A stretch of DNA of 64,000 nt from Scenedesmus sp. PABB004 (taxonomy: Eukaryota). Under the pieces are notes generated by a model. It made no database searches. It was not told the origin of the DNA and saw nothing but the letters and a program-made list of their open reading frames with translations. The stretch is from NCBI GenBank assembly GCA_014905635.1, contig JABVCE010000013.1, positions 186,001 through 250,000 on the forward strand. The letters are read 5' to 3'. Positions 6,779 through 60,434 of this stretch are shown piece after piece (positions within the stretch are counted from its first letter, which is position 1; every line of letters begins with the position of its first letter). Both the position numbers and the translations under genes were made by a program.

Positions 6779-7080
6779 GCCGGGCGGCCCAACCCGGAGC
6801 GCCTCGGGCACCGACGTGCCTGCGCAGGCGGGCGGGGCGAGTTCAGGTCTGGACGGCACGCGAGGGGCGCTCGGGGCGCCCTCGGCGCCACCGCCGGGCG
6901 CCAGCACTCTTCGCGGCCAAGCTCGCCAGAGCGCCGCGCGGCGTGCGGGCCCCAGCGCCGCGAGGGGCGGCCCCTCGTCGCCGCGTGCGTCCCGGGAGGC
7001 GCCCCCGCACCCGGCCCAGGCTCTCGCACAGCAGCACTCCGCTCTTCGCCTTGCTCCCCCCGAATGCGACCACGGCTCGC

Positions 7081-7612
7081 GCTGCGACTGGCGGTCACGC
7101 CCGCGTGCCGGGCTCTCGAGCCGCGCCTGGCCGCGTGCGCCGCGCGGCGGGGCCTTGGCGCGCGCTGGTGCGCTCGCACGCGATGGCGGACCCCAAAGCC
7201 TGCCCTGTTACACCGCCGATGGGCAGCGGCCGCCACCACCACCAGAGCGGCGGCAAGACCGGTGTCCGCGCGGTCGTGCCGCGCGCGGCGCCCCGCGAGC
7301 GAGGGCGCCGGCGGCCTGCCCGCCAGCGCGGCGCAAAGCGCGGTCGTGCAGGCCGGTCGCGTTCAAAATGACGCCCCCTGGCCGCAGCCTCGGCGCCGCG
7401 GCGCACCGCGCGCTGGCGCCGGAGCGCAGCCGGCGGTCGCCGGGCAGGGGTGTGTCCTGCGGTGCGAGCGGCCGCCCTGGCGCTCGCGCGCTCGCGGGTG
7501 GCGGCCCGTGGGCGCGTGGCGCCGCCACGGGGCGATCCGCCGCCGCCCCGCCGCTCCGGCCGCGCGACGGCGGCGCCCAGCGCTCACGCCGCCGCGCCGT
7601 CGACCGCCGCCA
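7081..7612. repeat. Left arm of ~530-bp inverted repeat (partner 11020-11548)
   Basis: Reverse complement of 11020-11548 with few substitutions or indels. The same peptides appear in ORFs 7064..7966(+) and 10639..11550(-). Confidence 0.95.
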
Positions 7613-7754
7613 CGCGTGGTGCGCGCCGCGCCAGGGCGCACCGCGGGGGGCTGCGCCAAAAAGAGGAAGGAATGCCTCCTGTGCTCCAAAACTGTCCAGC
7701 TGCGGCGCCAGAGCCGCCGCTGCCGCCGCAGCGCGCCGTCGCCGCTGGTGGCGC

Positions 7755-23209: not shown

Positions 23210-23985
23210 GGCTGCCGCGGGCCCCGCGCACCGCGGCGGGCGAAGAAGAATGCGCGCGGCCGGGCTGCGCCGGCGGCAGAGGGGAGGGGAGGGGGAGTCG
23301 ACCGGCGGCCGCGCCGCCCAGCCAGCGCTGGGCGGGCGCCGCGGTGCTTGGCACCGAGCGTTTGGGCTGCAGCGAGCGGCGGCGCGCGCACAGCACGCAG
23401 GGCGGGGGGCGAGATCCGTCGGGGGCGCGGGCGGCGGGGGCATTCAGGGGGTTGTTGGCCCCAGACCGGGGCGGGGCTGTGCGCGCTGCCGAGGGGGCGG
23501 CCGCGGGGGAGTGCTGCCGTGCCAGCAGCCGTGCATGGCGCGCACGCGCTCAGCCGCGCCGGGCGAGCCCGCTTGCGAAACAGCGAGCGCCCGGCGGCGA
23601 CCCCGCCCCAGTTCGTGCTCGGCAGATCAGAGTTGTCGCTGCGTTGGCGGACGCCAGCCCCTGGCGTGTGCGCGGCGCGCTTGTACCTGTGTCGTGTTGT
23701 TTGTACAAAATGCCCGGGGCGTGTAGACCTATCGGTGGCCCCTGGAGGGAGCGGGGGGGGGCTCGCTCGCTGCCCGGGGATCGCGGCGCGGGCGGCGGAC
23801 CGGCGGCGGCAAGGTTAGGTTAACAAGCGGCCGGCCGCGCCCACAGTGCCCCGTGTCGTCGCGTGCAGCTTGCAGATGCCGTGCCTCCGTGTCGGGCAGC
23901 AGCAGCGGTGGTGGGTGGGTGGGTGGTGTCGCCTCGCGGCGCCGCCGCCTTGCGTGACAGCCTCGCGGCGCGCACGCGTTCATGA

Positions 23986-24164
<179 letters not shown>

Positions 24165-24723
24165 AAAAGAAGAACATTGCTTTTGTGTGAAGAGAGCCTT
24201 TCTTGTGTTTCCAGGCTGGTCGGGACCGATGCGAAGCGAAGCGGTTGATTGATCGGTCAATGGGGGTGCGTGCCGTGGACTCACAGGTCCGAAGGTTGAA
24301 GGCATGATGTGTTGATGGTGCTGGGGGCCACCGCGCGGTGGCGCCTGCGCGCAGTGCTGCGCGCGCGCGGCGCCGGCGCCCGCCACGCGCCGCCGTTCAT
24401 GCGGCGGGCGCGGGCGGCGCCGGGCTGCGCGCGCGCAGCAGGCGCCCCTGCGTGCCCTGTTGCAGGGCGTGCGTTTGTGCCTCGCAGCGGTGCGAGGCTT
24501 GTCGACGAACCAAACCAAACCACACCAAGCGCGCGCGCACACTCTTCTGACAGCCGACCGCCGTCGCAACCCGGGCCTAGGGAGGCCTGCAGGGCCCGAC
24601 CAACCAGTCGACCGGCCAGACACAGGCCAGACCGACTGCGACACAGCCTACTACAGCACGGCGCGGCCCAAACTTCCTGCGGCCGCGTCGCCCGAAGTTG
24701 GTTGTGGACAGTCGCCGCCCTCG

Positions 24724-26385: not shown

Positions 26386-32699
<6,314 letters not shown>

Positions 32700-45930: not shown

Positions 45931-48237
45931 TCAATAGTCCTCCTCGTCCAGCGGCGCGCCGCCGTCCTCCACGCCCTCGTCCTCGCCGCCGGGCTCGTAC
46001 GCCTCCAGCTCGGCCTGCCGGATGGCGCGCTCCTGCAGCTCCGCGGGCTTGTAGTCACGGTGGTGGATGCGCGCCTGCGCGCGCGCGCGCGACGCGCAGC
46101 GACGGGTTGACTCGGCCGCCCGCCTCTGCCGCGGCGCGTGGCGCGGGAGCGCCTCCCCTGCCCGCCGCGCGCGGCGGCGCCGGCGCCGCGGCGCGCGCGG
46201 ACCTTCTCCGGGCGCGGCTCGTCGCCGTCCTGGCGCGCGCGCTTGCGCAGGCGCACGTTGCCGTCGAGCTGGCAGTAGCCCACGTGGTCGTCGTGCATCA
46301 GCAGCAGCAGCGTGTCCGGCTGCTTGTTCTGCGCGATCGCGCGCGCGACCGCGCGTCGGCAGCAGCAGCGGTCGGCCCGCTGCGCCGCGGCGGCCCCGCG
46401 CGCCCTGCCGCACCCCGCCCCGCGCCCCGCAGCGCCCCGCGCCGCCGCACCTGCAGCTCAAACGCGTACTCGCAGTCCCAGCTGTAGTCGCCCTCCAGCT
46501 CCGCCACGTCGGCGCCGTCGGGCAGCGGCTCGCCCGCCGCGGCCGCCGCCGCGGCGGCGCGCGGGACGAGCAGGCCCATCGCGGGGTCGCCGCCCGCCGC
46601 GCTGGTGGGCTGGTAGGATTTGATCATGCACCGCGACACAAACGACGCGCGCGACGCGGGGTCCCGGATCTGCGCAGTCGCGCGGCGACCACGCGGCGCG
46701 GCGAGCGCGGCGCAGTGGGCGCGCAGCGGGGTGACCGCGCCGCCCGCCGCGCACGGCTCGCCGCCGCCGCGGCCGCCGGCGCGCGCCGCGCGGCGCGGCG
46801 CGGCACCTGCGCGAGCGTGGCGCTGTCCTGGCCCGGGTCGCCGGTCTCAAAGTTGAGCGTGACGTACTTGTCCTCCCAGCCGGCAAAGTCAGGGAAGATG
46901 GGCACGACGCTCACCGCGGTCAGGCCGGGCTTGGTCGGGTGCCGCGGCGCGCCCGCCGCCGCGGTGAACGTCGCCTGCGCGGCGGCGGCGGGGCGGCGGC
47001 GCGGGCGGCGGCGCGGGCGTCGCGCGGCCGCGGCCGCGGCCGCGGCCGCAGCGGCGCGCGCGCCGCCGCGCGCCGCCGGGGCGACCGCGCCGCCGCCGCC
47101 GCACCTCGATGTCTGCGAGCTGCTGCTCGCGCGTGAGCTCGGCCGGCGCGGCCGAGGCCATCGCGAAGCGCCCGCCGCGCGGCGCGGCCGAGGTGGGGTT
47201 CTCCGCCGAGCTGGTGAGGTACGTCGTGGCCATGAGCCACGTGGGGCCCTGCCCGCGCGTCGCGCGCTTGACGCGCAGCGGCGACGCCGCGCCGCCGCCG
47301 GCCGAGGGCAGGCTGTCCACGTCCGCCAGCAGCGCCTCGTCCGCGGGGTCCAGCCGCCGCCGCTGCTGCGACGGCTGCCCCGGCGCCGCGTCGGGCTGGT
47401 CGTAGCGCTCCAGGTCCAGCAGGCTGCGGCGCGGCGGGGCGGCGGCGGGGTGAGGCGGCGGCGGCGACGGGCGCGCGGCGGTGCCGCCGCGCGCGCCGCC
47501 ACTGCCGCTCCCGCCGCCGCGCGCCCGCGCGCCGCGCGCGGCGGCGCGCGCCTGATCGTCACGCCCGCGTCCGCCGGCAGCAGCAGCTCGCGGCGGGGCT
47601 GCTGCTCTATGCTCGTGACGAAGAAGCGCGACAGCCGGTCCGGCTCAAAGCGCGAGACCAGCAGCTTGGGGTCTGCCGGGATCTGCGCCGCGGCGGCGGT
47701 GCGGCGGGTGGGCGAGCGCGCGCGCGTGCCGCCCGCGCCGCGTGCCGCTCGCGCCGCGCGCGCTGCTGCTGCGGCGCGCCTCTGGCAGGTCGTTCTTGAA
47801 GCGGAGGCTGCAGATGAAGGGCGTGTCGCGCCGCAGCCGCTCCAGCTCCGCGGTGCCGTCCGCCGCGATGGCCGGCACGGCCGCGCCCGGCGGCGCCGCA
47901 GCCGCCGCCGGCGCCGCCGCCGCGCCGGGCCGGCCTTTCGACGGCGGCCGCGCGCTGCCGCTGCCGCCGGCCGGCCGCGGCCGGTGCTGGTGCGGCTGCT
48001 GCTGGCGCTGCTGCTGCTGGTGGTGGTGCTGCCGCTGATGCTGCTGCTGCCGCGCGGGGTCGGCGGCCGGGCGCTGCTGGGGCGGCGGGCCCATCCTGTG
48101 CGAGGCGGCGGCGGCGGCGACGGGCTGAGCAGGCGTGCGCCGCAGCCGCGCCCGGCTCGCGGCGCTGCGGCGCTCCCCGGGGCGCGCGCGCACCCGGGCG
48201 GCGGCGGCAGCGGCGGGGCGCCCGCCACCTGCGCCAT
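45931..48237 (-). CDS. PAF1: RNA polymerase II-associated factor 1 (PAF1/ELF7 homolog)
   Basis: FICSLRFKNDLPEIPADPKLL, PTWLMATTYLT, QQLADIEATF...HPTKPGLTAVSVVPIFPDF and GYCQLDGNVRLRKR. Confidence 0.9.
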
Positions 48238-48776
48238 GGTCGCGGGGCGCGGCAGGCCCCGCTGGGGCCCCTGTGCGCCGGGACGGCGGCGCGCTCGGTG
48301 CTGCTGCTGCTGCTGCCGTGTGCAGGCGGCGCCCCCGATCGGGCAGCGGAGGCTCGAGGGCTGCGGGAGAGCCCCTCTGGCGAGCGTCGGCGCAGGCGGG
48401 TCGCGGCGGCCGGCGCGGGCGGAGAGAGCAGGCCTCGTCGGCGGGCGCCTCGGTGCGCCTGCTCCGGTGGCACGGGCTGAGGCGTTTGAGGTCCTGGGCG
48501 CGCCGACGGCGGCCGGGCGGCCTCGACGGCGCGGGCTGAACCGCGCGAACACATGAATCTGACCGCCTGCTCGTTCTGCTCCACCCGCTCACTGCGTTCA
48601 GAAGTCGCGCGCTCCTAGTGCGTTGCGGTGCCCGGTGCAGGGCTGCCCAGCGGGCCCCGGGGGCAGCTACGCCTTCGGTTGTGTAGCAAAACGTCGGTTG
48701 CAGGCCCGCGCAGCGGGCTGCCCGCGTGACGTGCCGCCAATCCGGTTCGCCCACGGCACCCGCCGGCCGGGACGCG

Positions 48777-51700
48777 ATGCAGGAGATGATGGCGCAGCTG
48801 CAGCTGCAGCACGCGCTCGCCGGCGCCGACGAGGCGGCGGCGTACGAGCGGCCCGGGCCGCAGGACGAGGACTGGGCGGCGCCGGCGGAGGGGGACGACA
48901 ACTTCAAGGTGCGGGGCCCGGCGAGGGCGCGGCCGGCGCGGTGGCAGCGGCGGCGCGCAGCGCAGCGCGCGGCGGGGACGGCAGCGGGGGCGCGCGCTCG
49001 GCCCGCTGACTGCCACGCCGGCCGCCGGAGCGCGCGCGGCGCGGCGGCCGCGCGCGGCGCGGCGCGGCGCGGCGCGGCGCGGCGCCAAGCCGCCCACACG
49101 CCGCCGCCGCCCCGTATCACCGCCCCGCGCCGCGTCCGCCCGCGCAGGTCGTCATCCGCGTGCGGCCGCCGCTGCCGCGCGAGCTGCAGGGCTATCGGGA
49201 GTACCAGTGCACGAGCCTCGTCGACGCGCGCAGCGGGCGGCTCATCACGATCAGCGAGAACCTGCCTGCCGTGCTCAGCGGCGCGGCCAACGCGGACGGC
49301 CTGCTCTACGCAACCTACAGGCGCGGCGCGGCGGCCGGCAGCGCCCAGCGGCGCACGGCGGCACGCGGCGGCAGCGCACGGCGGCGCACGGCGGCGCACG
49401 GCGGCAGCGGGCAGCGACGCACGGTGCCTGTCCCCCTGGAGCTGCCGCGCGCGCGCGCGCACCGACCCCCGCCGCGCGCGCCGCGGCCTCCCGGGCGCAG
49501 GTTCACGTTTGACAACGTCTACGACCAGGACAGCAGCCAGCAGGCGGTCTACGACCAGTCGGCGCGCCCGCTCGTGCTCTCCACGCTGCAGGTGCGACCG
49601 TGCGACCGCGCCGGCGCGCGCGAGTCGCAACGGGCGGCTGCCGACGCGCCGCGCGCCCCGCCGCCGCCGCCGCCGCCGCGTGCACCGCACGCGCGCAGGG
49701 CTACAACGCTGCCATCATCGCGTACGGCCAGACGGGCACGGGCAAGACGTACACGATGGAGGGCGAGCTGGAGGGCCCGCTGCGCGGCATCATCCCGCGC
49801 AGGTGCGGCGCGCGGCGGGGGAGGGGAGGGGGCGAGGCAGCAGAGCAGGGGCGCGGCGCGCGCGCCGACGCGCCGACGCGCCCGCCCGCGCCCCTGCGCC
49901 TCGCCGCGCCCCCGTCGCAGCGTGGAGGACATCTTTGCGGCGATCGAGAACGACCCCGAGCCGCACGCGACCAAGTACCTCGTGCGCGCGAGCTACCTGC
50001 AGATCTACAACGAGGTGCGCGCCGCCGCACACAGCGCAGCGCAGCACGCACAGCATGCGCAGCGCACGGGGTCGCCCGCGGCGCGAGCAGCCGCCCACGG
50101 CCACGCACGGTGACGCGCGGCCACGCACGGCCGCGCATGGCCGCTCACAGCGCCGTGCTCGCGCGCGCGCACCGCGCCGCAGGTCATCAGCGACCTGCTC
50201 AAGCCGGAGAAGGTCAACCTCATGATCCGGGAGGACCGGCGGCGCGGCGTGTTTGTCGACGGCCTCAGCGAGTGGGTCGTGCGCTCGCCGGCCGAGGTGT
50301 ACGGCCTCATGATGCGCGGCGCGCAGCAGGTGCGCGCGGCGCGCGTGCGGCGCGCCGCCGGGGTCCGCGGCCGCGCCGCCCCGCCCGCGCCGCGCCGCGG
50401 CCGACGCCGCGGCCGACACCGCGCCGCGCCGCGCCGCGCCGCGCCGCGCCGGCCGCGCGCACAGCGCGCGACGGGCGCGACAAAGATGAACGAGGTGTCG
50501 AGCCGCAGCCACGCGGTGTGCATCATCATCGTCGAAAAGTGCACCACCACCGCGGCGGGCGCGGGCGGCGGCGGCGGCGGCGCGGCCGCGGCCGCGGCCG
50601 CCGCGGCGGCGGGCATGGGCATGGACGGCGTCGGCATGCTCATGGCCGCGGCGGGCGGGCCGAGCAGCCGCAAGGCCGTCGCCGCGGCGGCGGCGCTGCA
50701 GCAGCAGCTGCAGCACAGCATCAAGGCGCGCGGGGCCGCGCGGGGCGCGCGCCGCGCCTCGCTGCGCGGCCCGCCCACGCGGCCCACCCGCCCGCCCCGC
50801 GCCGCCGCCGCGCAGGTGGGCAAGCTCAACCTGGTCGACCTGGCGGGCAGCGAGCGCGTGCACATCACGGGCGCGACGGGGAAGCGGCTGGAGGAGAGCA
50901 AGAAGATCAACGCCAGCCTCAGCGCGCTCGGCAACGTCATTGCTGCGCTCACCGACCGCAAGGTGCGCGCGCGCGGGCGGGCGGGCGGGCGGGCGGGCGG
51001 GTGCGTGGGTGGGGGCGCCTCGGACGCGCCGCGCAGCCTCGGGCGCGCGCGCGCGCGCGCCCACGCGCGCCCCGTGCGCGGCGCGGCGCGCAGGAGCGCG
51101 CGCACATCCCGTACCGCGACAGCAAGCTCACGCGCATCCTCGAGGACAGCCTGGGCGGCAACTGCAAGACCACAATGATGTGCATGATCAGCCCCGCGAT
51201 GGAGGCCTTTGCGGAGAGCCTCTCCACGCTCAAGTTCGCCAACCGGTGCGTCGCGCCACGCGCGCTGGGAGGAGGAGGGGGCGTCGACTAGGCTGCGCGC
51301 GTCGACTAGGCCGCCGTTCCCGCACGCGCCCACGCGCGTCGCGCCGTCGCCCCGCCGCTGCCGCTGCCGTCGCGCAGCGCCAAGAACATCAAGAACCAGG
51401 CCGTCGTGAACGAGGACGCCGACCAGCGCACGCTGCTGCGCAAGTACGAGCGCGAGCTGCGCCGCCTGCGCGCCGAGCTCACGCGCCGCAACAAGGAGCT
51501 CGTCGACAAGCGCCACCTGCTCGAGGCACGCGCGCGCGGGGGGCCGGCGCGCTGCGCGCTGCGGCGGGGCGCTGGGCCGTGGGCGCGGCCGCGCCGACCC
51601 GAACCGACCCGACCCGACCCGCCGGCCCGCGGAGCGGCGCGCAGGTGGAGGAGCAGAAGCGGCGCGCCGAGGCGGACAAGCTCGCCGCGCTGACGGCGCT

Positions 51701-53136
51701 CGAGACGGCGAGCGCCGAGTTTATGCGTGAGAAGCAGGAGAAGAAGGAGCTGGAGGCCAAGATCGCGGCGATGCAGAGCCAGCTGCTCATCGGCGGCAAC
51801 AAGCTCGAGGACATCCCAGCGTTCCGCACGCTGCTCGCAAAGGCGCGCCGGCCCGCCCCCCGGGCGCGGCGCGCGCGCGGCGGCGCGCGGGGCGTGGGGG
51901 CGCCGGCCGTGGGGGCCTGGCGCTATGCCCGGGGCGCGTGTGCCTGACGTCGCCCGCGGCCGCCGCAGGAGCACCGCCGCATCCGCGGCGAGTACGAGGC
52001 GCGGCTGCGCGAGCTCGAGGCGGAGCGGCACCTCGTGGAGGAGGACCTCGCGCAGGTGGACAAGTACAAGCAGCTGCTGCTCAAGCAGCGCGACATCATG
52101 ATCGCACTCACCGCGCGGCTCAACGAGCGCGACGAGCAGATCATGACGCTGCAGGCGCGCGCGCGCGCGGCGCGCGGCGCAGGGCGCGCGGCACAGGGCG
52201 CGCGGCGCCGGCCGTTGCTGCGCTGGGCGCCAGCGCCTTTGCTGTCTGCGCTGAGCAGCTGCCGCCGGTGCGCAGGAGGAGCTGGAGGCGTACGACCGCC
52301 ACCAGCGCCTGCTGGAGGACGCGCTCGACTCCAAGACTGCGGAGCTCATCGCGCTGCGCCGCGCGGCGCTCGAGGCGGCGGCCGCCAACGTGCAGCAGGT
52401 GCGGCGGCGGGCGGCTGGGTGGCCTGGCTCTGCGCCGCGGGCGCGCTGGCGCGGCGGGGCCGCGCCCGAGCGCCGCGCGCTGCCGCGCAGAGCCCCGGCG
52501 GCGACGAGTCGGCGGAGCTGGTGCACCAGGTGAAGCAGCTGCAGCTGGCCAACGCGGAGCTGCAGCAGCAGCTGCAGCAGCAGGCGCGCGCGGCGCTGGC
52601 GGCGCGCACGACGGGCGGCGGCGCGGTCGCGGCGGCGGCCGCCGCCGCCAACAGCCTGGCGGTGGTGCAGCAGCTGCAGCAGCAGCAGGCGGAGGCGGAG
52701 CATGAAGCAGAGAAGCAGGGTGCGCGCGCGCGTGCGTGCCCGCCAGGCTCTGCTGGGCTGCCCCCGGGCAGGGCCCGCACGCGCCTGCACCCGCGCGGCG
52801 GCCGCTGCCGACGCTGCCGCGCGCCCGCCGTGCGCAGCCGAGGAGCTGGCGTCGATGCAGGTGCAGCTCGACTTTGCGACCAAGGAGAAGGTGGCGCTGC
52901 AGACCATCCTCGCGGGCAAGGTCCTGCCGCTCGCGGACGAGCTGTCGGCCGGGCTCGCGCACCTGCGCGCCGCCGCGAGCAGCGGCGGCGGCAGCGCCGC
53001 CAGCGGCGACAGCGGCGACGCGGAGCTGGGCGGCGCGGGCGAGCGGCTCGCCGCGCAGGTGACGATGCTGCAGCGCCTGCTCGCGGCCACGGTGGCGGCC
53101 ATGGCGCGCGCGAGCGGCACCGCCGCCGCGCGGTGA
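48777..53136 (+). CDS. N-terminal motor kinesin with coiled-coil tail (about 15 exons)
   Basis: [28 protein letters not shown] (P-loop), [19 protein letters not shown] and [23 protein letters not shown]. Subfamily not assigned. Confidence 0.96.
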
Positions 53137-53635
53137 GCGCCGGCGGCAGCGGCGGGGCGGCAGCAGTCCAGTCAGTCAGCAGCGGGGCGGCATCTCAGCA
53201 TCTGCAGCAGCGGGGGCTCGGATTGATTTGATTGCAGAACTCTCCTTTCCGCGGGAGTCGCCGGTCGGCCCGCGGTCAACGCTCGGGCGCGGGCGACGAG
53301 GCAGGGCGCCGGCGCGGGGCGTGGCCCCGACTGGCGCAGGCTGCCGGCAGCGCGCCCTCGCAGGCGCTGGGCAAGGGCGCGCGCGTGCGGCCGCCGCGAG
53401 GCGGCGCGCGGCGCCCGCGCGCGACGAGCGCCGCCGCCGCCGGGCGCACGGTAATGCGCCGCCGTGGCGCGGAGGGCCGCATCAAGCTCGGCGACGGGCA
53501 CGGCGTGCGCAGCTGGGCATTTGCGCAGTCGTGTCGCTCACACGCTGGCCGCCGAGGCAACTGGGCCCTGAGCGCGTCGGGCGGTGCGGGGGACCGCGGG
53601 AGGCCTGCGCAACTCAGTTCAACTGCCGGGTCAAC

Positions 53636-54649
53636 TCAACAGTTGAACCACGCCGCCGCCTGCTGCGCCTGCTGCACCGCCTGCTGCGCCGCCTGCAGCC
53701 ACGCAGCCGCCTGCCGCTGCGTAGACGTCTGTGCCGCCTGCTGCACGGCCTGCTGCGCCGCCTGCAGCCTGGCAGCCGCCTGCGCCGCCTGCTGCGCCAC
53801 CTGCTGCTGCTCTTGCAGAAACGCAGCGGCCTGCGCCTGCTGCTGCGCCTGCAGACACGCTGCCGCCTGCTGCGCCGCCTGCTGCGCCGCCTGCTGCTGC
53901 GCCTGCAGCCACGCAGCCGCCCGCGCGGCGTGCGGCGGCTGCTGCAGCCAGGCAGCCGCCTGCGCCGCCGCCTGCTCCGCGGCCTGCTGCGCGGCCTGCT
54001 GCTGGGGCTCTTGCTGCTGCCGCAGCGGCCGCTTAGGAGTTGGGAGGTATGTGAACCTGCCCTCCTTGCGGCGCCGCTGCCACTGGGGCTTGTACTTGTG
54101 CTTTATGCGCAGCCACCGCTCCGCCGCCGCCGCGGCGCCGTCGGCCAGCGCCCGCTGCTGCCGCCGCAGCTCAGCCAGCACGTCCGCGTGCTTGGCGTTG
54201 GCGGGGTTGCAGCCCTCCGCCGCCGCGACGACCTTGCGCGCATTCGCGACCGCCGCGTGGATGCTGCTGGGCACGTGCGGCCCGCTTGCGGGCGGCTGCA
54301 CCGCGCAAGCGCTGGTGTGCTGGCCGTGCCCGCCGGTGCCCCAGACGAGGCCGCACTTGGCGCACGCCAGGAACCGCACCGCCGTCGCCAGCTCCTTTGC
54401 GGCAGTGCGCACCAGCCGCGCGGCGGCAGCGCGCACCAGCCGCCGCGCCATGCCGCCCGCTCGCGCCGTGCCGGGCGTCGCGCCGCGCCGCACGGCGAGG
54501 AGCTCCTCGCGCCGCGCCTCAGCTCCCGGCGGCCGGAAGTGCTTCAGCGCCGCCTCCCAGCTTGGCGCGTTGTTCTTGAAGCATTCCACCACCTCAGCCG
54601 GCACGCCGGCGGCGCCGCCGTACGCGCCGCCGGCCTCGAACTTGACCAT
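53636..54649 (-). CDS. Orphan intronless protein with zinc-knuckle-like motif and Q/A-rich repeat tail
   Basis: Open frame MVKFEAGG...CAKCGLVWGTGGHGQHTSAC...KHKYKPQWQRRRKEGR, then ~7 QAAQQAAA(W/C/F/R)LQ repeats. Start codon uncertain. Confidence 0.55.
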   Translation of the reverse strand: MVKFEAGGAYGGAAGVPAEVVECFKNNAPSWEAALKHFRPPGAEARREELLAVRRGATPGTARAGGMARRLVRAAAARLVRTAAKELATAVRFLACAKCGLVWGTGGHGQHTSACAVQPPASGPHVPSSIHAAVANARKVVAAAEGCNPANAKHADVLAELRRQQRALADGAAAAAERWLRIKHKYKPQWQRRRKEGRFTYLPTPKRPLRQQQEPQQQAAQQAAEQAAAQAAAWLQQPPHAARAAAWLQAQQQAAQQAAQQAAACLQAQQQAQAAAFLQEQQQVAQQAAQAAARLQAAQQAVQQAAQTSTQRQAAAWLQAAQQAVQQAQQAAAWFNC

Positions 54650-55141
54650 GCAGCCGTGCGCGGGCAGCACGCAGCGTCGATCGGGCGGCGCTGCAGCGCG
54701 GCGCGGCGGGGCTGCTGCGCGGCGTGGCGTGGCGAGGGTGGGCGCACCACACGGTCTGCTCACTGAGGCGCGTGCGGGAGCGGCGTCCGGGCTGCCGACG
54801 GGCGCGTGGGGCTGGCCGGCGCGCGGCGCTGCCGCCGGCGTCGCGGGGGCGGCGATTGCGCAGCGCCTGGTGCGGGGCGGAGGTGCGCACGGTATGCGAT
54901 GGGCGCGGGCGTCGCGCGGCGGGCGCGCGGCGCTGTGCGTCACGCGCTGAGCACAGCGCCCGCTCGCGCGCCGTCGCCCGATGAGCCGCCGCGCCCGCGC
55001 CGACCCTCCACACGCCGCCGCAGCCCGTCCCCGTCGAGCAACCGTCGTTACCCACCAGCAGCCAGGCACGCCCGGCCCGTTGGCGGGCGAGCAGCAGCGC
55101 GGCGAGCAGCAGCGCGCCGCTGCTGAGCGGCCCGTTGCGCG

Positions 55142-56244
55142 ATGGCAAGCACGCGCGCGCGCTCCCTGTACGTCACGCTCAAGGAGGAGGCCGGTTTCGA
55201 GCCCCAGATCTTTTACTGTGAGCCGACCGAGGCCGTGCTCGACGCGCTGGTGGGCGCCGGGGGCGCCGACGCGACGACGGCGGCCCTGTCGATCAACAAC
55301 CACCGGTTCGAGGCCACCAACCTCCCCACCGACAGCGTGCTCGGCTCTCAGCTGATGTGCGCAGCCAGCCGCTGGCAGGGAGCCGGCGCGCTGCGCGGCG
55401 GCCCGCAGCGCGCCGCGCGCCGCGGCGCGCGGCGCGCCCAACTGCTGCTCTCGCCCGCGCCCCTGCAGGCACCGCGGGCTGCTCGAGCGCCTCAAGCAGC
55501 AGGTGGCTGCAAACGGCATTGACCTGAGCACGCACGAGGTGGTTGGGGGGCACCAGCGGCTCCGCGTGTCCAACCTCGCCAACTGGCTGGGGCCGAACGA
55601 CCTCAAGCCGTACGCCACGTTCAAGGTCCGCGCCGCCGCCGCCACGGCCCGCCGACGCCGCCGGGCCGCGGCCGCCGCTGCCGCCGCGGCCCGCCACCAT
55701 CGCCGGGCCGCGGCCTCGGTCCGCAGGCGCGGGACCTCGAGGGCATGGGGCTGCCGCGCGAGACGGTGCAGCAGCGCGCGCCCGCCTCGGGCCTGCACGT
55801 CGACACCATCAACAGGGACCTGTACAATGGGCTCAAGAACCGCCACCAGCAGGACAACATCGCGGTGCTGCTCACCTGCGCCGCGGCCAAGGACGGCGAG
55901 CTGGTGCCGGTCACGCTGGCGTGCGAGTGGGCAGGCAAGAGCAAGGTGAGCGCCCGGGGCGCCCCGGGCCAGGCGCGCCGCACCGCAGCGCGTCGCGGCG
56001 CGCCAGCGGGCGCGGCGCCGGGCCCGACGAGAAGCCGCCGCCGCCGCCGCAGCGCGCGTACGCAGAGATCATGCCCGGCGGCACTGTCGTCATGATGGGC
56101 ACCGCGGCGTTCAAGGTCCGCCACCAGGTGTGCATCGTGCCGGGCAGCGTCGCACTGCGCGTGCGCACGCTCATGGTGCCGAGGCTCAACCAGGCCGGCG
56201 CCGCCCACCTCGTGCCGGTGGCGACGGACGCGATGCAGGGGTGA
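55142..56244 (+). CDS. Orphan ~260-aa globular-looking protein (4 exons)
   Basis: Exons 55142-55356, 55469-55625, 55727-55945 and 56053-56244 have GT-AG junctions and join into an uninterrupted frame with normal amino-acid complexity. No domain recognised. Confidence 0.7.
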
Positions 56245-56340
56245 GGCACGCGGCGGCAGCGGTGGGGCTGCGCGTGCGTGTGGGTGTGCGTGTGTGGCCG
56301 GCGCGGCGCGGCTGCGGCGCGGCGCGAGCGGTCAGCACAC

Positions 56341-57168
56341 GGTCGCTGATGACCTGCGGGGCAGCGTGCGTGGCGCCGTGTGTGCGGCGGCACGTGCGCG
56401 CGTCGGCGCTGCCCCGCGCTTGCAGCGTTGACAGCACGAGCGGGCGCGCCGACTGGTCGTAGACCGCCTGCTGGCTGCTGTCCTGGTCGTAGACGTTGTC
56501 AAACGTGAACCTGCGCCCGGGAGGCCACGGCGGGGGTCGGTGCGCGCACGCGCGCGGCAGCTCCAGGGGGACAGGCACCGTGCGTCGCTGGCCGCTGCCG
56601 CCGCGTGCCGCCGCGTGCCGCCGCGCGCCGCCGCGTGCCGCCGCGTGCCGCGCCGCGCCTGTAGGTCGCGTAGAGCAGGCCGTCCGCGTTGGCCGCGCCG
56701 CTGAGCACGGCGGGCAGGTTCTCGCTGATCGTGATGAGCCGCCCGCTGCGCGCGTCGACGAGGCTCGTGCACTGGTACTCCCGGTAGCCCTGCAGCTCGC
56801 GCGGCAGCGGCGGCCGCACGCGGATGACGACCTGCGCGGGCGGACGCGGCGCGGGGCGGTGATACGGGGCGGCGGCGGCGTGTGGGCGGCTTGGCGCCGC
56901 GCGCGCTCCGGCGGCCGGCGCGGCGGCCGGCGCGGCAGTCAGCGGGCCGAGCGCGCGCGCCCGCTGCCGTCCCCGCCGCGCGCTGCGCTGCGCGCCGCCG
57001 CTGCCGCCGTGCCGGCCGCGCCCTCGCCGGGCCCCGCACCTTGAAGTTGTCGTCCCCCTCGGCCGGCGCGGCCCAGTCCTCGTCCGGCGGCCCGCCGCGC
57101 TCGTACGCCGCGCCGTCGTCGGCGGCGCCGAGCGCGTGGTGCTGCAGCTGCGCCATCATCTCCTGCAT
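56341..57168 (-). pseudogene. Inverted partial duplicate of the kinesin gene (exons 1-3 plus a short piece of exon 6)
   Basis: [13 protein letters not shown]...GDDNFK / [19 protein letters not shown]...LYATYR / FTFDNVYDQ...LVLSTLQ match 48777-49591. The 19 nt ccgcaggtcatcagcgacc match 50177-50195. No P-loop exon. Confidence 0.9.
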
Positions 57169-57491
57169 GCTGCGGGGCCTGTGGGTATTCGTGGACGCCA
57201 CGGATTGGCCGCACGTGCCCTGGGCGAGCTGCAGGGCGAGCGAAGCGCCGCGGCGGCGGCGGCGGCGCCCCCTTCTCCATTCCTATCGGGCTGCGCCGCG
57301 CCGCCGAGCTAGCCACAGGCGCCGAAACAGGCTCGCAAGCCGGGATCTTGACTGTCACTGCAGGAAAAAAACGCGACATCGCGCTTGCCGCGTGAGGTTG
57401 CTGCCTCAACGCGCACGCAATTACGAGTTCCTGCCTCTTCTCCGCCCACGAAGCAGCCCGCAGCGCGCGCAGGCACACCACACGCGCCAGC

Positions 57492-60434
57492 ATGCAGGCC
57501 CTGCGCTCCTCCGCCCGCGCCCCGGGCGCGGCGCGCGCCGGCAGGGAGGCGCAGCGGTTGCCCCTCGGCCTCGTCATGCTGCCCGTCCGGCCGGCGGGCC
57601 TCGTGGCGCGGCGCGCTGCCGCCGGCGCGAGCACATCGCGCAGCAGCCTGCGCGGTGGGCGCCGCGGGGCGCCGCGCGCCGCGCCGGCGGGCGCATGACG
57701 CGCTCCCGCAGGCGGGCGCCAATGGGGGCCTCGATCTGAGCCCGCCCCGCGCGCCCACGCGCAGTGCAAGCAGTGGCCGCTGTGGCCGAGAACGCCGTGG
57801 CCGCACCCAAAGCCGCCGAGGGTGCGCGCATGGCGCCGGCAGCCGGCGCCCGCGCTGGCGTCGTGAACTCTGCGCCCGCCCGCCCGGCCGCGGCGGCGGC
57901 GGCACCGCGCGGCGGGCCCGCCGCTGCCGTCGCCGCGCCGCGGTCCGCAGCGCGGCCAGCTCGTGCGCGCCGCCGCCGCCGCCGACCGCCCGCCGCGCCG
58001 CCGCCGCCTCTCCCCGCGCGCGCAGGCCAGGCGCGGCCGATCTTCCCCTTCACCGCCGTCATCGGCCAGGTGCGGCGCGGCGCGCCGCGCGCGCGCCACT
58101 CGCTCCCCGCGCCCCCTCGCGGCGGCCGGGCGGGCGCTCGGCGCCCGCCCCTTTCGCTCCCCACGCACGCTGCGCACTCGCGCGGGCGCGAGCGCCACGG
58201 CCGCACCCTCGCCCCCTCGCGCCGTCGCCGCCCGCCTCCCTCGCCCGCCCGCCTCGCCTCGCGCGTTTGAACTCACACTCACACTCAAACCCGCGCGCCC
58301 GGAATTCAAACCCTCCCTCCTCCCTCCTGCAGGAGGAGATGAAGCTCGCGCTCATCCTCAACGTGATTGACCCCAAGATCGGCGGCGTCATGATCATGGG
58401 CGACCGCGGCACCGGCAAGACCACGACCATCCGCGCGCTCGCCGACCTGCTGCCCCAGGTCCCCGTCGTCGCCAAGGACCCCTTCAACTCGGGTGAGACG
58501 ACGACGCGGCGGCGGCGGCGGCGGGGGTTGGGGGGGGGGGCGCTGGCGGCGGCTCGTGGGCCGCGGCGCGGCACGTCGCTCCGCGCGCCGCGCCCGCTGT
58601 GTCGCGTGCGGCGCCCGACAAACACGCACACAACACCCCCCCCCCCCCCCAGACCCGTACGACCCGGAGCTCATGAGCGAGGAGGTGCGGCAGCGGCTCA
58701 AGGCGGGCGAGCAGCTGCCCGTGGGCAGCATGAAGATCCCCATGGTCGACCTGCCCCTCGGCGCGACCGAGGACCGCGTGTGCGGCACGATCGACATCGA
58801 GAAGGCGCTCACAGAGGGTGCGGCGGGGGGCGGCGCGGGGGGCAGGAGGGGGGGGGCAGGAGGGGCCAGTGAGAGGGCGCGCGGCGCGGCGGAGGGCGCG
58901 GCGGGGGGCGCGCGGCCGACGGCACCCCGCCCCGCCCCCGCCCCGCGCGCGGCGGCCAGGCGTGAAGGCGTTTGAGCCGGGGCTGCTGGCCAAGGCCAAC
59001 CGCGGCATCCTCTACGTCGACGAGGCGCGGCGCGGCGCGGCGCACGCAGCACGCAGCACGCAGCACGCAGCGCGCAGCACGCAGCACGCAGTAGCGGCAG
59101 GCCCGCGCCGCGGGCGCGCTGCCCGCGGGGCCTCGCCTGGCCCCGCCCCACCCCCAGCCCCTCCCCGCCGCCCGGCCCGCGCGCTCGCCCGCCCTGCCCC
59201 GCGCGCTCACCCGCCCTGCCCCTCGCACCGTGCCTCCCACCACCACCACCACCACCCCCCCCCCCCCCCACACACACACACCCAGGTCAACCTGCTGGAC
59301 GACCACCTCGTAGACGTGCTGCTCGACAGCGCGGCGTCGGGCTGGAACACGGTCGAGCGCGAGGGCATCTCCATCAGCCACCCTGCGCGCTTCATCCTGG
59401 TCGGCTCGGGTGCGCGCTGCTGCCGCCGGCGGCGCGCGAGCTGCGCGGCGCGGGGCGGCCCGGGAGGCGAGCGAGCGGGCGGGCGCGCCGCGCTCACGGC
59501 CCCGCCGCGCCGCCGCGCCGCCGCGCCGCGCCGCGCCGCGCTGCAGGCAACCCCGAGGAGGGCGAGCTGCGCCCGCAGCTGCTGGACCGCTTTGGCATGC
59601 ACGCCCAGATCGGCACCGTGCGGGACCCCGAGCTGCGCGTGCAGATCGTGAGCGAGCGCAGCACGTTTGACGAGAACCCGGCCGAGTTCCACAAGCGCTA
59701 CGCCGACAAGCAGGCGCGACACGCGCGGCGCGCGCGACGCGCGCAGCGGGGGCCGCGGCGGCGCGGCGGCACCGCGGCGGCTGCGCAAGCGCCGGCGCCG
59801 GCGCCCTCCCTCCTCTGCTCTCTGGCCCCCTGGCCCTCACCCGACCCGCCCCGCGCGCGCGCGCGCACACAACACGCACAACGCACGCGCGCAGAACGCG
59901 CTGACGCAGCGCATCGTGGACGCGCGCGCCAAGCTCAAGAGCATCTCCATCCCCTACGACTTCCGCGTGAAGATCAGCGCGATCTGCAGCGAGCTCAACG
60001 TCGACGGCATCCGCGGCGACATCGTGTCCAACCGCGCGGCAAAGGCGCTCGCGTGCTTTGAGGGCCGCGACGAGGTGGCGGTGGAGGACATCTACCGGTG
60101 CGGCGCGGGGCGCGGGAGGAAGGGAGAGGGGGGGGGGGTGGCGGGCGCGTGCCCGCGGCGGGCGCGAGGCGCGGGCGGGCGGCGGGCGGGCGGCGTGGAG
60201 CGGGCGGGCGGCGGAAGCCCAGCGGGGCGCAGCGGCGCGGGGCGCGGCGGCGGCGGCGCGGCGCGCCTCTCACCCCGCCCCGCCCCCGCCCCCGCCCCCG
60301 CCCCCGCCCCGCCGCGGCCGCGCAGCGTCATCCCGCTGTGCCTCCGCCACCGGCTGCGCAAGGACCCCATGGCCGACATCGACAACGGCGACCGCGTGCG
60401 GCAGGTGTTCAAGCAGATCTTCGCGATGGAGTGA
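57492..60434 (+). CDS. CHLI: Magnesium chelatase subunit I, chloroplastic
   Basis: [105 protein letters not shown] and [10 protein letters not shown]. Confidence 0.98.

Follow-up and report, generated by a model that had tools for sequence, protein, structure and literature searches.

An inverted copy of a kinesin 5' region in the green alga Scenedesmus sp. PABB004, probably a truncated and decaying duplicate

In the Drosophila melanogaster group, inverted copies of unique and mostly genic sequence accompany 17 of 29 inversions. These copies have a median length of 321 bp and a maximum of about 1.9 kb, are 88±5.4% identical, mostly comprise partial genes presumed to be non-functional, and are explained by staggered breaks with filled-in overhangs (PMC1885836). 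In yeast, a 24-kb region of chromosome XIV is found in flip and flop orientations between the arms of a 4-kb flanking inverted gene repeat, which is continually homogenised (PMC9731477), and in human an inversion toggles between inverted segmental duplications (bioRxiv 10.1101/2021.12.20.472354). Here we describe a gene-derived inverted repeat of the green alga Scenedesmus sp. PABB004, situated in a stretch of 64,000 nucleotides of contig JABVCE010000013.1 (hereafter the window; positions are counted from its first letter). One arm of the repeat, arm A, is the working 5' end of a kinesin gene; the other, arm B, is an inverted copy of this region adjoining the gene for the Mg-chelatase subunit ChlI. 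An earlier annotation made from the letters alone, below called the sequence-only reading, proposed a shufflon-like switch that would exchange the kinesin promoter and N-terminus and named, as the mundane alternative, an inversion or duplication scar. Bacterial shufflons and invertible segments of the Hin/Gin/Fim type operate through a recombinase and short specific sites.

The evidence favours the mundane alternative, a scar of a formerly longer or functional copy. Arm B is probably what survives best of a truncated, inverted duplication of the kinesin 5' region, that is, a pseudogene fragment and not a switch cassette.

The PABB004 assembly comprises 39.8 Mb in 77 contigs (N50 1.3 Mb), with 78.5% GC and 7,092 genes; no other genome of its group is as small or as poor in repeats (1.31%; PMC12571836). 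The GC content is about 80% across the whole window, and the window genes contain introns. No publication on the kinesin locus was found among the titles and abstract openings of the literature mentioning the strain.

The inverted repeat and the relic beyond it

A repeat search followed by pairwise alignment delineated both arms, with a spacing of 6768 nt. An alignment permitting long skips in the parent gene then placed further kinesin sequence beyond arm B.

48729-49621, plus strand: arm A, the working kinesin 5' end
48729-48744, plus strand: upstream motif of arm A
48777, plus strand: ATG of arm A
48777-48908, plus strand: exon 1, followed by intron 1
49148-49321, plus strand: exon 2, followed by intron 2 with a GC donor
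49502-49592, plus strand: exon 3, followed by the first approximately 29 nt of intron 3
49699-53136, plus strand: kinesin body from exon 4 (P-loop) to the stop codon at 53134-53136 (PF00225; end of database protein P0001)
57216-56390, minus strand: arm B, the inverted copy
57216-57201, minus strand: upstream motif of arm B
57168, minus strand: ATG of arm B
57168-57040, minus strand: exon 1'
57039-56832, minus strand: intron 1'
56831-56658, minus strand: exon 2'
56657-56510, minus strand: intron 2'
56509-56419, minus strand: exon 3'
56418-56390, minus strand: approximately 29 nt of intron 3
56285-56389, minus strand: relic of kinesin sequence from farther downstream, matching parts of parent 50015/50023-50463 in collinear order

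The inverted copy of the kinesin 5' end noted in the sequence-only reading is thus present, and its exon 1 peptides differ as given there. Identity between the arms is 90.7% in exon 1 (12 substitutions and a 3-nt gap, exon 1' being one codon shorter and in frame), 98.3% in exon 2 and 96.7% in exon 3. Intron 1 is 93.3% identical with 31 additional gap columns in a simple repeat, and intron 2 is 91.9% identical with 32 gap columns in a 10-mer repeat. Overall the arms are about 7% diverged and their ends are fuzzy; outside them identity falls to 47-52%, the background at 80% GC. The longest identical run is 118 nt. As a candidate for a recent conversion tract this run was rejected, being not clearly longer than expected by chance given exon constraint (hand estimate P of about 0.04-0.3).

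The three copied exons of arm B contain no stop codons and no frameshifts, again as read from the letters. Their splice sites are kept except for donor 3, where the GT of the parent is replaced by GC (position 56418). The donor of intron 2 is apparently GC in both arms (CAG/GCGCGG, at 49322 and 56657).

The promoter was said to be copied as well. Shared upstream sequence does exist, but it is confined to about 48 nt: a block of 27 nt at positions -48 to -22 is 81% identical between the arms, whereas positions -21 to -1 are unrelated. In the entire window, the 16-nt motif within this block has no mismatch-free occurrence outside the two arms. Indeed, the arm sequences are found nowhere else in the window, so that both ends of the bracketed segment carry inverted copies of otherwise unique sequence, as in inversion-associated inverted duplications.

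The copy was described as comprising exons 1-3. These exons are confirmed, but homology runs about 29 nt into intron 3 and continues as relics to about position 56285. In order, the relic comprises the 29 nt of intron 3, then intron 5, which is shortened but starts at its donor, next an acceptor with the first 13 nt of exon 6, and finally pieces of intron 6; past exon 3 of arm B one finds the acceptor followed by GTCATCAGCGACC, the start of parent exon 6. The P-loop-bearing exon 4, intron 4 and exon 5 have been deleted altogether, as has most of exon 6, and therefore arm B is unable to encode a motor. The chain of collinear blocks corresponds to parent positions 50023-50033 (11/11 identical), 50116-50129 (12/14), 50172-50195 (22/24), 50196-50201 (5/6), 50381-50398 (17/18), 50437-50453 (16/17) and 50454-50463 (8/10); shorter blocks further along resemble noise. 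The exact 19-nt match of 56359-56341 to 50177-50195 was reached in none of 300 dinucleotide shuffles (mean longest match 12.9). The whole chain scores 125, compared to 82±5.8 in shuffles (maximum 104, reached in 0 of 200) and at most 112 in 72 natural 145-nt segments taken elsewhere in the window (reached in 0 of 72); the reverse-complement control scores 71. In total, about 840 nt of parent sequence are represented by about 130 nt in the relic, which is about 9% diverged. The copy therefore originally covered at least 1.7 kb of the kinesin gene, to parent position 50463. With 0.89 kb preserved, at least 1.7 kb originally and one copy degenerating, it is a modest duplicate in the range of tens of bp to about 2 kb.

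The parent gene is a proper kinesin. It encodes the database protein P0001 (979 aa, annotated as 'Kif3c [Scenedesmus sp. PABB004]'), the N-terminus of which coincides with arm A exon 1 letter for letter and which ends at the stop codon listed above. The motor domain is recognised on two open reading frames (ORFs; PF00225, E=1e-33 and E=7e-33), and the best solved relatives are KIF3B (3b6u, E=2.3e-79) and OSM-3. The parent is thus a kinesin-2-like motor possessing the P-loop, with a coiled-coil tail, whereas arm B holds only residues preceding the P-loop. The exon borders of arm A agree with the transcript-derived relatives P0002 and P0003. No annotated protein is built on arm B among the 101 database matches listed (lengths 30-1036 aa).

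Among the described systems, the Drosophila copies are similar in several respects (PMC1885836). In both cases inverted, ancestrally unique and mostly genic copies lie at both ends of a segment and represent partial genes with exons and introns. The sizes are comparable (here 0.89 kb survives of an original 1.7 kb or more; in Drosophila the copies reach about 1.9 kb), as are the identities (91-93% here, 88±5.4% in Drosophila), and the non-parent copy decays by substitutions and deletions. On the other hand, the bracketed segment is far smaller here and its inversion is presumed from the structure; moreover, the motor exons are preserved without nonsynonymous change, whereas most Drosophila copies are degenerate throughout.

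The structure probably arose as a by-product of a local rearrangement, most likely a micro-inversion of the 6.8-kb segment by staggered breaks, which would leave each end with an inverted duplicate of the sequence at the breakpoint; alternatively, it may stem from a replication template switch. The duplicate would then have decayed by several deletions beyond exon 3. The intact 0.83-kb block may still be long enough to recombine with arm A, and rare gene conversion or re-inversion could expose changes in arm B to selection acting on the working gene. Alternatively, the copied sequence may have spent an earlier period within a working paralog, which would equally leave only synonymous differences; a third route to clean motor exons is chance. 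If so, the locus shows on a small scale, and cleanly, how a very compact algal genome of 78.5% GC retains an inverted gene fragment after a local rearrangement and how such a fragment erodes unevenly: where it is still long enough for recombination with the parent its coding sequence remains clean, and the rest is deleted.

Substitutions between the arms

The six substitutions in exons 2 and 3 are exactly those listed in the sequence-only reading, and all are synonymous (Nei-Gojobori: S=66.8, N=197.2, sd=6, nd=0). The products of these exons are identical in the two arms over 88 residues, and in exon 3 taken separately all 3 differences are synonymous. In exon 1, by contrast, 8 differences are nonsynonymous and 4 are synonymous, and the nonsynonymous to synonymous contrast between exon 1 and exons 2-3 is significant (Fisher P=0.013). 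Of exon 1, only the end (…EEW…GDDNFK) is conserved in P0002 and P0003. All amino acid differences between the arms fall into the unconserved part of exon 1, and the two differences in its conserved end are both synonymous.

The probability that all six substitutions are synonymous is 0.0003-0.003 if both copies are neutral. The argument that a neutrally decaying fragment should not show only synonymous changes stands, and it is one of several points that weigh against a plain pseudogene fragment. With arm A constrained and arm B always neutral, the probability of six synonymous changes out of six is 0.004-0.026, a range that allows for a transition bias of 1-2 and for CpG hypermutability of 1-20 fold; adding the conserved end of exon 1 makes it eight of eight, with P = 0.0007-0.008. 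Because the motor exons show only synonymous change, a simple dead scar is insufficient without a step of coupling or past function. Simple homogenisation by conversion would not predict that synonymous sites differ more than clean introns, but they do differ more than the non-repetitive intron stretches (6/66.8 and 6/281, respectively; Fisher P=0.014). The copied exons retain an open frame and splice sites, bar the GT to GC change at donor 3; deletions are confined to the region beyond exon 3, and the indels within the 0.83-kb arm occur in simple repeats only. Such a contrast between an intact arm and a deleted remainder would be expected of a used cassette as well. All in all, the deficit of nonsynonymous differences is real but modest; it involves few events and comes from a scan of very many windows, and thus is suggestive, a hint and not a proof.

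Gene order and competing explanations

The arms bracket three units, defined by codon-position GC periodicity and translations: the kinesin body and two further genes, denoted Y and X. Both arms face a neighbouring gene head-to-head.

53636-54649, minus strand: putative gene Y, an ORF of 337 codons (MVKFEAGG...), from minus-strand codon periodicity
55142-56244, plus strand: gene X, four exons encoding a protein of 260 aa (codon periodicity; database protein P0102)
46627-48588, minus strand: Paf1-family gene, head-to-head with arm A (Pfam Paf1, E=9.4e-14)
57493-60431, plus strand: gene for Mg-chelatase subunit ChlI, head-to-head with arm B (8osf, E=2.2e-25; AAA_lid_2, E=2.1e-13)

Both flanking genes agree with their earlier assignment. 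The length of about 6.8 kb given for the interior is also correct, but the interior holds two unrelated genes in addition to the kinesin body. The predicted geometry is sound too: a crossover within the arms would rebuild an intact kinesin gene headed by arm B and adjoining ChlI.

This geometry would allow a passive flip/flop, in which homologous recombination between the arms occasionally re-inverts the 6.8-kb segment, in cultures or over evolution. Arms A and B would then alternately head the kinesin under the Paf1-side or the ChlI-side upstream region, giving two slightly different N-termini without any recombinase, and selection would keep both arms intact while the never-used relic decays. 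Indeed, wherever in the arms a crossover took place, it would restore an intact kinesin and move X and Y as whole genes; nonsynonymous differences are in deficit, the preserved arm contrasts sharply with a relic that would be unused in either orientation, and homologous recombination could make use of the identical run of 118 nt. A precedent exists on yeast chromosome XIV (PMC9731477); as there and in the human toggling inversion (bioRxiv 10.1101/2021.12.20.472354), a multi-gene segment lies between gene-derived inverted repeats, and its re-inversion is structurally possible and would be tolerable. However, the yeast arms are 4 kb long, contain whole functional genes and are almost identical, whereas here a fragment of 0.83 kb is about 7% diverged (about 91-93% identity), and instead of near-identical homogenised repeats we observe segments ranging from 90.7 to 98.3% identity, with indels. 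Besides, unlike the flip/flop systems, this locus is known from the reference orientation alone. The position of exon 3 poses a further difficulty. In either orientation, the relic remains attached to the inner end of an arm, so crossover alone cannot protect exon 3 of arm B, and yet, although this exon should be unprotected by geometry, all three of its differences are synonymous. We consider such a flip/flop unlikely, but worth keeping in mind; if true, it would be a eukaryotic nuclear swap of promoter and N-terminus by inversion without a recombinase, in a green alga. The intact 0.83-kb arm next to the deleted remainder fits it as well as it fits occasional conversion or re-inversion of a pseudogene fragment.

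The same synonymous-only pattern would also be produced if arm B were itself expressed from a bidirectional promoter on the ChlI side and were under direct selection. Its product would be a short N-terminal kinesin fragment of exons 1-3 continued by a 66-nt in-frame hybrid intron or by read-through, with a stop near 56187; alternatively, arm B would give rise to a transcript antisense to the 3' end of gene X. The open frame, the conserved splice sites, the upstream motif unique to the arms and the ChlI start codon at a distance of 324 nt are consistent with this. However, such a product would be without the P-loop and every motor element that follows it, its tail past exon 3 would consist of relic or low-complexity sequence, and neither a gene model among the listed database matches nor an Rfam family in the window (none was found there) corresponds to it. 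This makes direct expression improbable. An assembly artefact or a misplaced haplotig seems still less probable. It is true that the differences between the arms, being located at synonymous sites, unconstrained residues and intron simple repeats, resemble those between two working alleles. But the 3' end of gene X is joined to a deletion-riddled, about 9% diverged relic, which is not what an assembler would produce from two haplotypes; the copy is 6.8 kb away and does not form a contiguous palindrome; and the assembly, with 77 contigs and an N50 of 1.3 Mb, is contiguous (PMC12571836).

As for the shufflon-like switch itself, that is, a programmed inversion of the phase-variation type driven by a site-specific recombinase, only the geometry speaks for it: as in bacterial shufflons, inversion of arms that include the gene's 5' end would exchange the promoter-proximal part and the N-terminus of one gene. 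Unlike those systems, this is a eukaryotic nuclear locus with no recombinase gene found and no short specific sites. No recombinase, invertase or transposase family was detected in X or Y (Pfam, at E<=1 or E<=0.1, in the 46-60 kb region), and the neighbours on the two sides are Paf1 and ChlI. The arms consist of exon/intron copies of 0.83 kb, which are long and about 7% diverged; the segment encloses unrelated genes, one 'cassette' is joined to a decayed relic with deleted exons, and a second, non-coding inverted repeat is present nearby. The proposed switch is thus unsupported and very improbable, and we return to a truncated inverted duplicate as the explanation of arm B.

Neighbouring genes, gene models and a second inverted repeat

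Gene X converges on arm B, and its stop codon is about 40 nt from the relic. The database protein P0102 (260 aa) is 100% identical over exon 1 of gene X, maps to 55142-56241 by tblastn and has the same stop; in that map low-complexity matches swamp P0001, and the rows of P0102 alone were taken into account. No confident Pfam family was found for gene X, P0102 giving only a sub-threshold SurA_N match, and a protein search yielded one match to its own sequence and one weak match to an SLBB-repeat protein. The C-terminus of the putative gene Y consists of Q/A-rich tandem repeats (53648-54002). It has no Pfam family and no homolog among 8000 scored candidates, alanine-rich words weakening the search; the best Atlas score, 0.79, is only a lead. 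Y is thus a putative gene, which may be lineage-specific or else a miscall.

The candidate start codon of the Paf1-family gene is at 48554, about 220 nt from the kinesin ATG, and that of ChlI is at 57493, 324 nt from the ATG of arm B; both are predicted positions. Comparison of gene order involved five metagenome loci of 2-4 kb, where tblastn of the window ORFs retrieved kinesin exons only and neither Paf1 nor ChlI.

The database model P0001 reads introns 2 (49322-49501, 180 nt) and 6 (about 50330-50464, about 135 nt) as coding. Both stretches are in-frame, stop-free and Arg/Ala-rich, and have no counterpart in P0002, P0003 or the kinesin of a relative in the metagenome contig L001; most likely they are introns. 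Stop-free in-frame introns in a genome with 80% GC can mislead gene callers, and annotators should note such models as well as the pseudogene adjoining ChlI. In L001 (1986 nt), exons 2, 3 and 4 of the kinesin gene are contiguous, without introns 2 and 3, and an intron-1-like gap is retained. The contig comes either from a relative with few introns or from a transcript, partly processed, that entered the metagenome assembly.

A second inverted repeat was observed at 7074-7616 and 11554-11020. Its arms of about 535 nt are 97.8% identical, sharply bounded and non-coding, having no codon periodicity, and they bracket 3.4 kb in which both strands show coding signal. Among 17 ORFs of this region, Pfam detected neither a transposase nor any other confident family, and gave one sub-threshold match only. 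Two such structures within 64 kb, in a genome where repeats make up 1.31%, point to rearrangement as a general process rather than to a device specific to the kinesin gene.

The usual polyadenylation signal of chlorophytes is TGTAA. This word occurs five times on both strands of the 64 kb and is absent between 48 and 58 kb; it is thus of no help in locating transcript ends, which in this region may depend on some other signal. Two arrays of an 8-10-nt tandem unit are located at 23919-24211 and 30341-30517, 6.2 kb apart, and match each other at 62-72%.

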